Assembly (NCBI RefSeq): GCF_055900595.2 | Contig: NZ_CM148325.1 | DNA: 64,000 nucleotides | Reading direction: 5' to 3' (one strand) | Part shown: piece after piece, positions 30,001 to 42,000 of the stretch | Layout: every line of letters begins with the position of its first letter | How positions within the stretch are numbered: the stretch's first letter is position 1 | Program-made: the position numbers

Positions 30001-33000
30001 CGAGTGAAGCTTTATGTCGTGTTCTGGCGTGTCCTGTGTTAGTTAGAACACGCCATCGATGGTCAGCAGGTTCATATTGCACCAGAGCGGATACAGCGTG
30101 GTGTTATGTCAGGGCTGCGCTGTTTACGTGAACACGTGGCGTACGGCCCCGCTTCCTGGCCCTGCTGGGCATGGATCACGGCGCGACAAAGGGGCGACTA
30201 CCTGGCAGCATGTGTCCAGCCGGTTCACAATCTGGTGAAGGTTCCTTACGCTCATGGGCCATACTGATAATTCACCAGGCCATCATTTCCAGAGGAAGAC
30301 GCCGTTTGCGTAGCGTGACAGTGTCGGACTCTTCAGGGCTGTGGGTAATCAGTTCCGGGGCAAGATAGTCGCAGAGGGTTACGCAGAGAATAGTAACTGG
30401 ACACTGGATCGATCAACCGATCCTTAACTGAGCGGCATGACAGCTTTCTGATGGTTTTTTTTTGATAATCTTCACATTGTGCTTCTTTTCTGTTGGATAA
30501 TCTTTGTACTTGATGGTGTACTAGGTATCCCATTATGCAGTTAAGTGAAGGTGATTAAAAATGCAATGTGAATTTAAAGGGGTCATATCAGCATTACCCA
30601 CTCCTTATGACCAATCCCAGCAAATCGATATGGAGAGTCTTCGAAAACTGATCCGTTTTAATATCGAACAAAATATTAAGGGATTGTATGTTGGAGGCTC
30701 TACTGGAGAAGCATTTCTTCAGAATGTTGCAGAGCGAGAAAAAATTCTTGAAACAGTAGCCGATGAATCAGATGGAAGACTGACACTTATAGCGCATGTG
30801 GGCGGAATCAGTACGGCAGAAAGCGAGGTACTTGCAAAAGCTGCAAAAAAATACGGATATCATGCTATATCTGCTGTTACTCCATTTTATTATCCTTTTT
30901 CATTTGAAGAGCATTGTATTCATTACAGGAAGATTATTGATTCTGCAGATGGACTTCCGATGGTAGTTTATAATATACCGGCTCTTAGCGGAGTGCGTTT
31001 TTCTTTAGATCAGATAAATGAGCTTGTCACAATACCCAGGGTTTGTGCATTAAAACAGACATCCGGTGATTTATTCCAGATGGAACAAATCAAAAGGAAT
31101 CATCCAGAGCTTGTGTTATATAATGGTTACGATGAAATATTTGCATCAGGGTTAATTGCAGGTGCAGATGGGGGAATCGGTAGTACATATAATATAATGG
31201 GGTGGCGTTATCTTGAAATATTTGAAGCAGTCAAAAACAATGATGTGATTAAGGCGAAGGAAATGCAAGTAGCCTGTAACCAGGTTATTGACACTCTTAT
31301 TCAGAGTGGTGTCCTGGCAGGTATAAAAACTCTTCTTTACTATATGGGGATTATAAATACTCCTGTATGCAGAAGTCCTTTTTCTCCGGTAAAGGAAAAG
31401 AATCTGGATGTATTATCAAAACTTGCAGAGCGACTGTTCGAAGAACATGACAGAAACAAAAAAATGAAAATAATCTGAATAATTGCAAGATTGTTATATA
31501 GGTGAAAATGAATGATAACACTGGCTGTTGATATAGGAGGAACGAAAATTTCAGCGGCGTTGATATCTGATGACGGTTCATTTTTGCTGAAAAAACAGAT
31601 ATCAACACCTCATGAAAGATGTCCTGACGAAATGACAGGGGCTTTACGTCTACTGGTTTCTGAAATGAAGGGAACAGCGGAGCGATTTGCAGTAGCATCA
31701 ACAGGGATTATTAATAATGGAGTATTGACAGCTCTGAATCCAGACAATCTTGGAGGGCTGAAAGAGTATCCTCTGAAAAATATAATGGAAGATATAACTG
31801 GTTTAAATGGAAGTGTGATAAATGATGCCCAGGCAGCCGCATGGGCAGAATATACAGTTTTGCCGAAAGAAATTTGTGATATGGTTTTTATAACCGTTTC
31901 TACGGGGGTTGGAGGGGGAATTGTAGTTAACAGAAAATTATTAACAGGTGTTTCTGGATTAGCCGGACATGTTGGGCATATATTGTCCGGAGTAACGGAT
32001 ACAGAATGTGGATGTGGTCGTCGGGGATGCGTTGAAGCGGTTTCATCTGGTCGGGCCATCATGGGGGCAGCAAAAAATAAACTTGCAGGATATAGCACCA
32101 AATATATTTTTGAATTAGCGAGACAGGGATATAAGGAAGCAGAATTTTTGACAGAGCGTTCTGCCAGTACTATTGCTGAATTAATAGTAAGTTTAAAATT
32201 ACTGCTTGATTGTCAGGTTGTTGTTGTCGGAGGAAGTGTTGGACTTGCTGATGGGTATGTTCAGAAAGTGTCGAAACATCTTTCCATATATTCTGAAATT
32301 TGTAATGTAATGCTGTTTCCGGCATATTTCAGAAGTGACTCTGGTCTTATTGGTGCAACTCTTTGGGACCGGGATTGTATTACTTAAAGTAATACTCCAG
32401 TGTATTATAAATCCGCTATTATTGTGAGGTTTAATATGGACTCCTGTATTCAGAAAAAGCAGGTTTGGTATAAGCATCTTTCACCCAGACAGTGGAAGAT
32501 ATTCGGTGCGGCATGGACAGGTTATTTACTTGATGGTTTTGATTTCGTTCTGATATCTCTGGTTCTTACAGAGGTTCAGCATGAATTCGGCTTGACGACA
32601 ATAGAAGCGGCAAGCCTTATTTCCGCTGCTTTTATTTCTCGATGGTTTGGGGGGCTTGCTATTGGCGCTTTATCGGACAAGATGGGGCGCAGGATGGCAA
32701 TGGTTTTAAGTATAGTGCTATTCTCTCTCGGAACCCTTGCCTGTGGTCTGGCTCCTGGATATGCAGTGATGTTTATTGCTCGCATTGTTATTGGGCTTGG
32801 TATGGCAGGTGAATATGGCTCAAGTGTAACATATGTTATCGAAAGCTGGCCTGTTCATCTCAGAAACAAGGCAAGTGGTTTTTTAATTTCTGGATTTTCT
32901 ATTGGGGGAGGTTTAGCTGCACAGGTTTATAGCATTGTAGTACCACTATGGGGCTGGCGTTCTCTTTTCTTTGTCGGCATGCTTCCAATATTATTTGCTT

Positions 33001-39000: not shown

Positions 39001-42000
39001 TATCTGTCTGCTGGATGCAGGGGGAGTTTGATCTTATGTCACCAGATTATGAAAAGCATCCTGACTTGTTTTATCAGATGGTAACTTCTTTCAGGTCTGA
39101 GTTATCTGAATACTCATCTCAGTGTGTTGGTAATTCGTCAGAAAGAGTTCCATGGTTGTGTGGTGATACAACCTGGTACTGGAAGGAATCTTATCAAAAA
39201 GAATATGATTTTATATATGGACATTACAGACAACGGACTGATGATGAAATACATTTTCTCAGCTTTCAGGATAGTAACCGACATGAATTAACTAATGAGC
39301 CAGAAGAAGATGCCGATGATTTATCTGTCGGGTATCTGGGGTCATCATGGAGGACAGAATTAAGCTGGACAACGTCACAGAGAAGTACACATTTTAATTC
39401 AATGGCCAGAAGGGGAGTTATTGCTGAATGTTATGCGCAAAAAATAAGAAATTATTTGTAGACAAGTTCAGGATATATCTACAGCTCTGACATGATTCTC
39501 TGAGAGACATGACGGAGTGGTTAGACTGGCCCCCTGAATCTCCAGACAACCAATATCACTTAAATAAGTGATAGTCTTAATACTAGTTTTTAGACTAGTC
39601 ATTGGAGAACAGATGATTGATGTCTTAGGGCCGGAGAAACGCAGACGGCGTACTACACAGGAAAAGATCGCTATCGTTCAGCAGAGCTTTGAACCGGGAA
39701 TGACGGTCTCCCTTGTTGCCCGGCAACATGGTGTGGCAGCCAGCCAGTTATTTCTCTGGCGTAAGCAATACCAGGAGGGAAGTCTTACTGCTGTGGCTGC
39801 CGGAGAACAGGTCGTTCCTGCCTCTGAACTTGCTGCCGCCATGAAGCAGATTAAAGAACTCCAGCGTCTGCTCGGCAAAAAAACGATGGAAAATGAACTC
39901 CTTAAAGAAGCCGTTGAATATGGGCGAGCAAAAAAGTGGATAGCGCACGCGCCCTTATTGCCCGGGGATGGGGAGTAAGCTTCGTCAGCCGTTGTCTCCG
40001 GGTGTCGCGTGCGCAGTTGCACGTCATTCTCAGACGAGCCGATGACTGGAAGGACGGCCGCCGCAGCCGTCACACGGATGATACGGATGTGCTTCGCCGT
40101 ATACACCATGTTATCGGAGAGCTACCCACATATGGTTATCGTCGGGTATGGGCGCTGCTTCGCAGACAAACAGAACTTGATGGTATGCCTGCGATCAATG
40201 CCAAACGTGTTTACCGGACCATGCGCCAGAATGCGCTGTTGCTTGAGCGAAAACCCGCTGTACCGCCATCGAAACGGGCACATACCGGCAGAGTGGCTGT
40301 GAAAGAAAGTAATCAGCGATGGTGCTCTGACGGGTTTGAGTTCCGCTGTGATAACGGAGAAAAACTGCGGGTCACGTTCGCGCTGGACTGCTGTGACCGT
40401 GAGGCACTGCACTGGGCGGTCACAACGGGTGGCTTCGACAGTGAAACAGTACAGGACGTCATGCTGGGAGCAGTGGAACGCCGCTTTGGCAGCGAGCTTC
40501 CGGCGTCTCCAGTGGAGTGGCTGACGGATAATGGTTCATGCTACCGGGCGAATGAAACACGTCAGTTCGCCAGGATGTTGGGACTTGAACCGAAGAACAC
40601 GGCAGTGCGGAGTCCGGAGAGTAACGGAATAGCAGAGAGCTTCGTGAAAACGATAAAGCGTGACTACATAAGTATCATGCCCAAACCAGACGGGTTAACG
40701 GCAGCAAAGAACCTTGCAGAGGCGTTCGAGCATTATAACGAATGGCATCCGCATAGTGCGCTGGGTTATCGCTCGCCACGGGAATATCTGCGGCAGTGGG
40801 CCAGTGATGGGTTAAGTGATAACAGGTGTCTGGAAATATAGGGGCAAATCCATTGTCAGCACCAACAATGTGGGCTGACATGATAAAGCTGTCTAGGAAA
40901 TCGTTCGCCTCCTCAGCGGACAATCCAAATGGTGATTGTCTCTGTTAAACGTTTATTTTGAAGGTCGACTGAATAAGGTGATGACGCTGTAGAATTTTTC
41001 ACGTGCCACAGAATTTTGAACGCTTTCTCTTACAATATTTCAATGTTTCTATCAGTATTCGCCGGAAGAAGTCATCGACCAAATCATCCCAGTCGTCTCG
41101 CACCACTGACCATTCATGGTTGACATGTGGTGGAAATCCGCTTCTACAGTAACCATTTTTTATTCGCAAAACCGAACACGCCATACGGATAGCTGTTAAC
41201 TGGCATGCCGAGGCAGTCGTTATTTATATTTAGTTTTGTCAATAATCTTTATTTTTTGTAAAAGGCAAATATAAATTATTCTCATTATTGTTTGTATTTA
41301 TGTATTGTCTTGCCGGTTAACATGATCGGAGATTAGTAATATGCGAATAACCACTCTGGCTTCCGTAGTCATTCCCTGTCTCGGATTTTCAGCCAGCAGC
41401 ATAGCTGCTGCAGAGGATGTGATGATTGTCTCTGCATCCGGCTATGAGAAAAAGCTGACTAACGCAGCCGCCAGTGTTTCTGTGATTAGCCAGGAGGAAT
41501 TGCAGTCCAGCCAGTACCACGATCTGGCGGAGGCTCTGAGATCAGTAGAGGGTGTGGATGTTGAAAGTGGTACGGGTAAAACCGGTGGGCTGGAAATCAG
41601 CATCCGAGGAATGCCAGCCAGTTACACGCTGATACTGATTGATGGTGTTCGTCAGGGCGGAAGCAGTGACGTGACTCCCAACGGTTTTTCTGCCATGAAT
41701 ACCGGGTTCATGCCCCCTCTGGCCGCCATTGAGCGTATTGAGGTTATCAGGGGGCCGATGTCCACACTGTATGGCTCTGATGCGATGGGCGGTGTGGTGA
41801 ATATCATTACCAGAAAGAATGCAGACAAATGGCTCTCTTCCGTCAATGCAGGGCTGAATCTGCAGGAAAGCAACAAATGGGGTAACAGCAGCCAGTTTAA
41901 TTTCTGGAGCAGTGGTCCCCTTGTGGATGATTCTGTCAGCCTGCAGGTACGCGGTAGCACACAACAGCGTCAGGGCTCATCGGTCACATCACTGAGCGAT

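Follow-up and report, generated by a model that had tools for sequence, protein, structure and literature searches.

Why should a genomic island of E. coli hold a second set of genes for sialic acid use, with three esterases and without nanE? This question is raised by the segment 30561-39461 of the 64 kb stretch of DNA analysed here (the window), which can be identified with high confidence as nan-9, the accessory locus for sialic acids on the pheV genomic island of ST131/CFT073 type. The locus is already known: Tiwari et al. 2023 (PMC10088187) published it as the "human-associated nan-9 cluster", and in PMC11537424 it appears as the "nan module" of GI-pheV, a description and a name of which the preliminary description was unaware. 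Nine intact ORFs span exactly this segment in the order nanA, nanK, nanT, α/β-hydrolase 1, NanC-type porin, nanM, α/β-hydrolase 2, nanR and nanS. Their coordinates and intergenic gaps of 12-49 bp (using annotated start codons) agree with the tight packing claimed beforehand; nanR converges with hydrolase 2 across 35 bp, and 99 bp separate it from the divergent nanS. The set is contiguous and chromosomal and corresponds to the definition of nan-9 (nanA-K-T, axeA1-like, nanC-M, axeA1-like, nanR, nanS). The identity with the published cluster follows from the same gene order, from 100% nucleotide identity to ST131 chromosomes and to an O25:H4 chromosome, and from a similar prevalence: the full-length locus is present in 688 of 5426 complete E. 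coli genomes (12.7%), the published value being 12% (PMC10088187). The nine genes, the IS66-family (IS682) and IS2 flanks and the ST131, ST73 and ST69 lineages match as well, and the locus itself differs in nothing from nan-9 or from the GI-pheV nan module.

The GC content of the locus is 39.4% (36-45% in 1-kb windows) against 50-60% for the neighbouring IS sequence, as expected from the AT-richness noted in the preliminary description. On the minus strand upstream lies an IS66-family element (tnpC, truncated tnpC, tnpB, tnpA) with a transposase remnant (26462..30443; tnpA/B/C at 26462-29900, remnant at 30046-30443). Downstream, on the plus strand, an IS3-family transposase with programmed frameshift (IS2, 39613..40841) is followed by iha at 41341-43431. 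These flanks were transferred to the window from the PGAP annotation of a genome with 99.9% identity, and they place the locus where it had been said to lie, between an IS66 element and IS2, near iha. In 23 of 86 isolates, nan-9 is followed by IS2 (PMC10088187). The proposed horizontal acquisition is supported because the locus has a low GC content compared to chromosomal nanRATEK (~54%; nanCMS has 45%), because IS elements flank it within the pheV island and because it is restricted to 688 of the 5426 complete E. coli genomes.

Three further diverged versions of the cluster were identified, two on E. coli IncF plasmids (types P0004 and P0005, e.g., NZ_CP010197.1) and one on the chromosome of Proteus faecis TJ1636. 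For plasmid type 1, 10 of the 20 complete genomes come from mice or rodents. Since the gene set is kept in the four versions at 46-90% identity, both hydrolases would belong functionally to the pathway.

Protein searches confirmed the homologies to NanA/K/T/C/M/R/S, and every gene assignment made beforehand stands in the light of family scans, K-12 identities, Pfam and solved structures; the divergence from the chromosomal enzymes that had been claimed amounts to 44-66% identity to the K-12 proteins. All genes but nanR are on the plus strand. The predicted N-acetylneuraminate lyase NanA (30561..31478, 305 aa) scores 449 bits with NF003164 (cut-off 281) and 434 with TIGR00683 (cut-off 382) and is 66% identical to K-12 NanA. 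Ten of ten checked residues are conserved, among them S47, T48, Y137, K165, T167, D191, E192 and S208, and we take them to include the Schiff-base Lys165, Tyr137 and the sialic-acid-binding sites of E. coli NanA structures; the substrate-binding residues are the same as in K-12. The putative ROK-family N-acetylmannosamine kinase NanK (31512..32387, 291 aa; 53% identity to K-12 NanK) is recognized by the subfamily model PRK05082 (420 bits, cut-off 283), the equivalog NF047821 remaining at 385, under its cut-off of 450, and keeps the DxGGT motif and the H156/C166/C168/C173 zinc site. NanT (32436..33908, 490 aa) is a sialate:H+ MFS symporter by NF003024 (829 bits, cut-off 604; TIGR00891 gives 473, under 553). 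Its start codon is that of PGAP, the ORF being open from GTG 32400. It shares 66% identity with K-12 NanT and 90% with its counterparts in the other three cluster versions.

Two products, and only these, carry signal peptides. The KdgM-family outer-membrane porin (34788..35498, 236 aa), labelled KdgM-family porin by PGAP, has OmpL (KdgM family) as its sole NCBIfam match, under cut-off, is 61% identical over its full length to K-12 NanC (234 aa) and begins with the signal-peptide-like MKKYYPLLTVILLGLPLCSQA. Full-length homology and signal peptide assign it to the NanC sialoporin type, with a putative channel specificity. The N-acetylneuraminate mutarotase NanM (35511..36620, 369 aa) has a hydrophobic N-terminal signal, matches NF010730 at 499.5 bits (cut-off 416) and is 44% identical to K-12 NanM.

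On the minus strand, nanR (37641..38375) encodes a GntR/FadR-family repressor of 244 aa (NF003011, 273 bits, cut-off 260), 52% identical to K-12 NanR, from which it does not differ in the wHTH segment with the recognition helix, including VGRPS.REAL. A NanR-type operator is predicted from motif conservation at 30514..30532 (plus strand), where two GGTATA-like hexamers, GGTGTA-CTA-GGTATC, end 29 nt ahead of the ATG of nanA. All four cluster versions have the same 15-nt core TGGTGTACTAGGTAT 5' of nanA, surrounded by sequence that differs. Each nan locus contains a single match to the pattern GGTRTANNNGGTAT, which also finds the (GGTATA)n NanR sites 5' of nanA and nanC in K-12; in the window the motif is unique, with 0.01 chance matches expected. 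Such a shared operator points to cross-talk between the locus and the core NanR regulon. No NanR-type motif is present in the 99-bp promoter region of nanS, and a consensus scan for a sigma-70 promoter gave no convincing candidate. Between the convergent hydrolase 2 and nanR genes, a 10-bp hairpin (37626..37653, no strand assigned), found by consensus scan only, is a possible bidirectional terminator, although scan matches in the region are no commoner than in shuffled sequence.

The esterases are of two kinds. NanS (38475..39461, 328 aa) matches the NanS 9-O-acetyl-Neu5Ac esterase 3pt5 (E=9e-125) and Pfam SASA, has no NCBIfam match in the family scan and is 56% identical to K-12 NanS. On the basis of this homology and of its conserved GQSN serine and C-terminal histidine, it can be assigned to the NanS-type sialate 9-O-acetylesterases (SASA), with a predicted activity. 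The two others, 37% identical to each other, are α/β-hydrolases of the BD-FAE type (PF20434, E=8e-20 for hydrolase 2 and 7.8e-7 for hydrolase 1). Hydrolase 1 (33933..34742, 269 aa), of BD-FAE/Abhydrolase_3 type, matches Peptidase_S9, BD-FAE and Abhydrolase_3 in Pfam, carries PGGG, GFSAG, DD and GGHGF motifs and has 6a6o (E=1e-32) and 7dwc (E=1e-27) as closest solved structures. Hydrolase 2 (36670..37605, 311 aa), closest to 6a6o (E=1.5e-35), has an N-terminal extension of about 50 aa, and its S160, D249/D250 and H282 are invariant in seven nan-linked homologues, as is the oxyanion motif. In other enterics, its homologues (47% identity at most) are lone genes with neither nan nor pectin context. 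PaeX and AxeA1 are the top NCBIfam models for both hydrolases. Identity with PaeX was rejected at 254 bits for hydrolase 2 and 168 for hydrolase 1 (cut-off 550), and identity with AxeA1 at 157 and 136 bits (cut-off 700).

A recognisable signal peptide is missing from all three esterases, as it is from K-12 NanS; a hydrophobic N-terminal signal was sought in hydrolase 1 and a signal peptide at the N-terminus of hydrolase 2, and neither was found. The published literature (Vimr's model) places K-12 NanS in the periplasm, where it is needed before NanT. This location contrasts with the missing signal peptide of both NanS proteins.

A tblastn search across the whole 64 kb window found neither NanE nor NanQ, in agreement with the absence of nanE noticed beforehand. 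In published knockout experiments, the Δnan-9 mutant lags by about 3 h on Neu5Ac and grows more slowly and to a lower level on Neu5Gc, the ΔnanRATEK mutant does not grow on these sialic acids, and Biolog arrays reveal no difference for Δnan-9 (PMC10088187). The locus is a second sialic-acid scavenging system, as had been suggested, and it has been shown to boost growth on sialic acids yet to require the core-genome nanRATEK operon. The preliminary description had left a choice between reliance on chromosomal nanE and a different substrate; the knockouts decide it in favour of a dependence on core nanRATEK. The authors ascribe this dependence to the missing nanE (PMC10088187), which the deletion of five genes does not prove.

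A route for sialic acids can be proposed from these assignments. Free sialic acids would pass the outer membrane via the NanC-type porin, their anomers would be equilibrated by NanM, presumably in the periplasm, and the NanT-type proton symporter would take them into the cytoplasm. There, up to three esterases (NanS-type SGNH/SASA and two BD-FAE) may remove O-acyl groups, NanA would cleave Neu5Ac or Neu5Gc into pyruvate and ManNAc (or ManNGc), and NanK would phosphorylate ManNAc or ManNGc. ManNAc-6-P would then be converted into GlcNAc-6-P by chromosomal NanE, so that the locus would support the core pathway and could not substitute for it. The seven genes from nanA to hydrolase 2 appear to form a single operon behind the NanR-type operator, to which NanR would bind, while nanR and nanS would be transcribed divergently from the separate 99-bp region.

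What, then, would the additional esterases bring? A specialisation in O-acetylated sialic acids is a plausible hypothesis and is also that of the authors of PMC10088187. A more specific reading is tentative and less likely than not. The BD-FAE hydrolases could be new, non-SGNH sialate O-acetylesterases, working in the cytoplasm on those O-acetyl positions or oligo-O-acetylated forms that NanS handles poorly, after intact import by the nan-9-type NanT. The four cluster versions might then represent one mobile "modified-sialic-acid" module tuned to different hosts, whose esterases, as its fastest-diverging parts, would set which host sialic acids are usable. A plain redundant copy, giving more dosage or faster induction of ordinary Neu5Ac/Neu5Gc use, with esterases that add nothing specific, is a rather unlikely explanation that still has to be taken seriously: no phenotype has been measured beyond a lag with unmodified Neu5Ac and slower growth with Neu5Gc, and the substrate-binding residues of NanA are those of K-12. 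However, nanS and the two hydrolases keep intact catalytic triads in the four versions, at 46-66% identity in these genes, which is hard to explain without selection on the esterase function.

It is very improbable that the true substrate is another acetylated sugar acid, such as acetylated oligogalacturonides. Although PaeX and AxeA1 lead the models for both hydrolases and the porin is a KdgM-family member with OmpL as its only NCBIfam match, the PaeX and AxeA1 scores are far under their cut-offs, the porin is 61% identical to NanC, and NanA, NanK, NanT, NanM, NanR and NanS all belong to sialic-acid-specific families. Furthermore, Δnan-9 alters growth on sialic acids, and the lone homologues of hydrolase 2 in other enterics offer no pectin context. 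Least credible of all is a decaying island passenger that is no longer selected. The IS flanks, the foreign base composition and the whole-module deletions of some ST131 strains would fit such decay, but none of the nine ORFs is disrupted, no other GI-pheV module is as conserved as the nan module (99.6-99.7%, PMC11537424), the locus is full-length in 688 complete genomes and its knockout has a phenotype (PMC10088187).

In a GWAS of 1,198 E. coli genomes, nan-9 was the cluster with the strongest human-host association, and its occurrence centres on the pandemic ExPEC lineages ST131, ST73 and ST69 (PMC10088187). These two features make it a credible gut-colonisation factor. The human association had already been found, and the additions made here are incremental by themselves: the conserved catalytic residues, the missing signal peptides of the esterases, the operator and the three diverged versions. 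The operator motif, the plasmid and Proteus relatives and the lack of esterase signal peptides were not found reported in PMC10088187 or PMC11537424. The diverged relatives provide comparative material for the biochemistry of the esterases and the transporter.

Several known systems share parts of this locus. The BD-FAE/PaeX/AxeA1 acetylesterases (6a6o, 7dwc, 3hxk) are of the same α/β-hydrolase fold family as the nan-9 hydrolases, with the PGGG oxyanion motif and the GFSAG-D-H triad. However, these acetylesterases are not orthologues of the nan-9 hydrolases, which score far under the PaeX and AxeA1 cut-offs and whose context is made of sialic-acid genes and not of pectin or xylan genes. In the same way, the prophage NanS-p esterases of EHEC and UPEC have the SASA/NanS catalytic domain in common with nan-9 NanS, whereas the latter is a short single-domain form (328 aa) belonging to a metabolic cluster and not borne by a prophage. 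EC958_3294 is probably the nanS of this locus, judging from the locus tag; its listed identity to EC958_1546, a prophage NanS paralogue, is 57%.

The plasmid and Proteus versions share with nan-9 the gene set (without nanK in Proteus), both hydrolases, the 15-nt operator core and AT-richness (33.5-41% GC), whereas protein identity is only 46-90% and the plasmid versions are cyclically permuted (hydrolase 2, nanR, nanS, nanA, nanK, nanT, hydrolase 1, porin, nanM). The K-12 sialoregulon (nanRATEK-yhcH and nanCMS) encodes homologues of seven of the nine nan-9 products, with 44-66% identity and catalytic residues kept, and is likewise governed by a GntR-type regulator with an invariant recognition helix and a GGTATA-like operator. 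It nevertheless consists of two operons, whereas nan-9 is one contiguous cluster that has two additional α/β-hydrolase genes and lacks nanE and nanQ (yhcH). Furthermore, nanR is upstream of nanA in K-12 and divergent from nanS in nan-9, the operator has three hexamers in K-12 and two in nan-9, and a GC content of 39% sets nan-9 apart from both nanRATEK (54%) and nanCMS (45%).

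The locus at 30561-39461 is a cluster that has already been described and named. A GWAS of 1,198 E. coli genomes (Tiwari et al., BMC Biol 2023; PMC10088187) identified, as the strongest human-host-associated trait, nine contiguous genes in the order nanAKT, axeA1-like, nanCM, axeA1-like, nanR and nanS, which were named nan-9. According to this work, the encoded proteins share 45-64% similarity with those of the sialoregulon, the cluster is flanked by IS682 (IS66 family) upstream and IS2 downstream, and it is enriched in ST131 (85%), ST73 and ST69 and carried by 12% of RefSeq genomes. 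Our own search retrieved the full-length locus from 688 of 5426 complete genomes (12.7%). In work on the pheV island, the same 8,905-bp stretch is called the 'nan module' and is the most conserved of the modules (99.6-99.7%; PMC11537424), and EC958_3294, listed as a NanS paralogue (PMC5425062), is probably the nanS of nan-9, judging by its locus tag. The additions made here to published work are incremental: an operator motif, relatives on plasmids and in Proteus with a permuted gene order in the plasmids, the lack of signal peptides on the esterases and the conservation of catalytic residues.

Nine ORFs occupy exactly this interval, with start codons as annotated in RefSeq for a genome that is 99.9% identical. 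The plus strand encodes nanA (30561-31478), nanK (31512-32387), nanT (32436-33908), a first α/β hydrolase (hydrolase 1, 33933-34742), a KdgM/NanC-type porin (34788-35498), nanM (35511-36620), a second α/β hydrolase (hydrolase 2, 36670-37605) and nanS (38475-39461), while nanR (37641-38375) lies on the minus strand; intergenic gaps are of 12-49 bp. NanA, NanT, NanM and NanR, as well as NanK (with a subfamily model), score above the curated NCBIfam cut-offs. The NanS-like protein has no NCBIfam match; it is related to the solved NanS structure 3pt5 (E=9e-125) and matches Pfam SASA. Identity to the K-12 proteins reaches 66% for NanA and NanT, 61% for the porin (compared with NanC), 56% for NanS, 53% for NanK, 52% for NanR and 44% for NanM, and the two hydrolases are paralogues sharing 37% identity. 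The GC content of the cluster is 39.4%, against 50-60% for the flanking IS sequences and 54% for K-12 nanRATEK. Neither NanE nor NanQ was found by tblastn in the entire 64 kb window. Thus, the nine-gene content proposed in the preliminary description holds in every detail, with families assigned by profile or structure matches. The same is true for the divergence from the chromosomal enzymes (44-66% identity), the AT-richness relative to the flanks, the absence of nanE and, from the annotation, the IS66 and IS2 flanks and the neighbouring iha; its overall interpretation of the locus is supported.

On its upstream side, nan-9 is preceded by an IS66-family element and by a transposase remnant; downstream, it is followed by IS2, an element of the IS3 family with a programmed frameshift, and by iha. 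At 26462-29097, a second, truncated tnpC copy directly follows the IS66-family tnpC. The remnant (30046-30443) borders directly on the AT-rich module, so that no more than about 117 bp of native sequence precede nanA. The remainder of the window fits a GI-pheV island of ST131 type, in which one flank of nan-9 comprises kps region 1, the yee module and agn43, and the opposite flank iha, sat, iutA and iucDC. Positions 1-18300 carry, on the minus strand, the genes for capsule export (kpsF/E/D/U), the yeeU/cbtA toxin-antitoxin module and agn43, together with an AbiE pseudogene; sat, iutA, iucD and iucC are located at 48000-64000. Further AT-rich stretches are seen at 3-6 kb, 20-22 kb and 56-59 kb.

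In an ST131 strain, cells deleted for nan-9 lagged by about 3 h on Neu5Ac and grew more slowly and to a lower level on Neu5Gc, and Biolog arrays revealed no difference (PMC10088187). In the same study, the ΔnanRATEK mutant did not grow at all on Neu5Ac, which its authors attributed to the missing nanE. Dependence of nan-9 on the core operon has therefore been shown experimentally, and nanE is probably the component on which it depends. Specialisation for O-acetylated sialic acids is a hypothesis common to the preliminary description and to these authors, who proposed the two axeA1-like genes as new sialyl esterases; our literature search found no follow-up biochemistry on nan-9.

Judging from conserved residues, the active sites of nan-9 enzymes appear intact. 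NanA retains S47, T48, Y137, K165, T167, D191, E192 and S208, and NanK retains the DxGGT motif and the His/Cys3 zinc site. In NanS, the serine of the GQSN motif and the C-terminal histidine are conserved; the catalytic residues are Ser19/His301 in the customary NanS numbering. A review bears out only that there is a catalytic Ser and a catalytic His. Both hydrolases are BD-FAE/Abhydrolase_3 proteins (Pfam), whose closest solved structures are 6a6o, 7dwc and 3hxk, and possess a PGGG oxyanion motif and a GFSAG...DD...GGHGF triad that are invariant in 7 nan-linked homologues. They are not orthologues of PaeX or AxeA1, since their scores are far under the corresponding cut-offs. Other enterics have homologues of hydrolase 2 (Kluyvera type) that reach 47% identity at most; these are isolated genes and give no functional clue because they have neither nan nor pectin neighbours. 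Both hydrolases remain linked to nan genes despite strong divergence between cluster versions, and among the computational arguments for an action on sialic acids this linkage is the strongest one available. The two hydrolases may represent a putative new fold class of sialate O-acetylesterase, tuning the module to the sialic acids of the host.

Diverged relatives were found by a search with hydrolase 2 followed by reading of the encoding contigs. They amount to three additional versions of the whole gene set, two plasmid types and one from Proteus faecis. Plasmid type 1 is carried by E. coli IncF conjugative plasmids, between traX/finO and repA, and was retrieved from 20 of 5426 complete genomes and from 19 plasmids of PLSDB. 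Ten of the 20 genomes come from mice or rodents, whereas nan-9 is associated with human hosts. Plasmid type 2 originates from an E. coli O54:H45 assembly. In both types (IncF plasmid contigs L005:10001-19020, L018 and L021:10001-19058), the order is cyclically permuted: hydrolase 2, nanR, nanS, nanA, nanK, nanT, hydrolase 1, porin, nanM. The chromosomal version of P. faecis TJ1636 (L010:4606-12753) has eight genes in the nan-9 order, without nanK, and a GC content of 33.5%, the range over all versions being 33.5-41%. It is followed by EamA and ShlB-type two-partner-secretion genes, and a metagenome contig (L004) is 99% identical to it.

Divergence between nan-9 and the other versions is very uneven. 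NanT shares 90% identity (79% at the nucleotide level), the porin 81-87%, NanR 72-80%, NanA 69-71%, NanS 62-66%, hydrolase 2 55-57%, NanK 54-58%, NanM 54-57% and hydrolase 1 46-48%. Such unevenness means either that the esterases are changing much more rapidly or that the clusters have a mosaic make-up. A single search of species-representative genomes for a donor retrieved only P. faecis, with hydrolase 2 at 57%, and no close donor. The low GC content and the Proteus version suggest a Morganellaceae-like source. Two contigs of Gram-positive MAGs, labelled Collinsella sp. (L008) and Bacillota bacterium (L009), match nan-9 at 99-100%. Because L009 has the whole cluster at this identity, both are very probably E. 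coli contigs binned in error, and they were left out of the host-range evidence. The 36-kb 'plasmid' record CP088636.1, in which nan-9 genes at about 89% identity are broken into many small ORFs, is probably an error-rich, uncorrected long-read assembly of nan-9 rather than a real variant and was left out of the comparison.

Among nan-9 proteins, only the porin and NanM have an N-terminal signal peptide; inspection of the N-termini revealed none on hydrolase 1, hydrolase 2 or NanS. Cleavage at the N-terminus of NanS is implausible because its catalytic serine is residue 22. We infer from these N-termini that the nan-9 esterases would be cytoplasmic. The N-terminus of K-12 NanS resembles that of nan-9 NanS in being devoid of a signal peptide; the literature model places the K-12 enzyme in the periplasm.

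The Rfam search of 29900-41400 gave no match, and no promoter is claimed for nan-9 because matches to sigma-70 and terminator consensus sequences were no more frequent than in shuffled sequence. The 99-bp nanR-nanS region contains no NanR-type motif, and no exact GGTATA triple repeat like those of K-12 occurs in the nan-9 promoter regions. The informative motif is a degenerate two-hexamer pattern: a predicted operator, TGGTGTACTAGGTATCCCA, lies at 30514-30532, 29 nt before the nanA start, and its 15-nt core is identical in all cluster versions. The pattern GGTRTANNNGGTAT is present a single time in each nan locus examined and, in K-12, also singles out precisely the (GGTATA)n sites that precede nanA and nanC. 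Cross-regulation between the accessory and core nan systems is plausible, because the winged-helix segment of NanR is almost invariant between nan-9 and K-12. The predicted site consists of two GGTATA-like hexamers with a 3-nt spacer, the spacing of the K-12 NanR operator.
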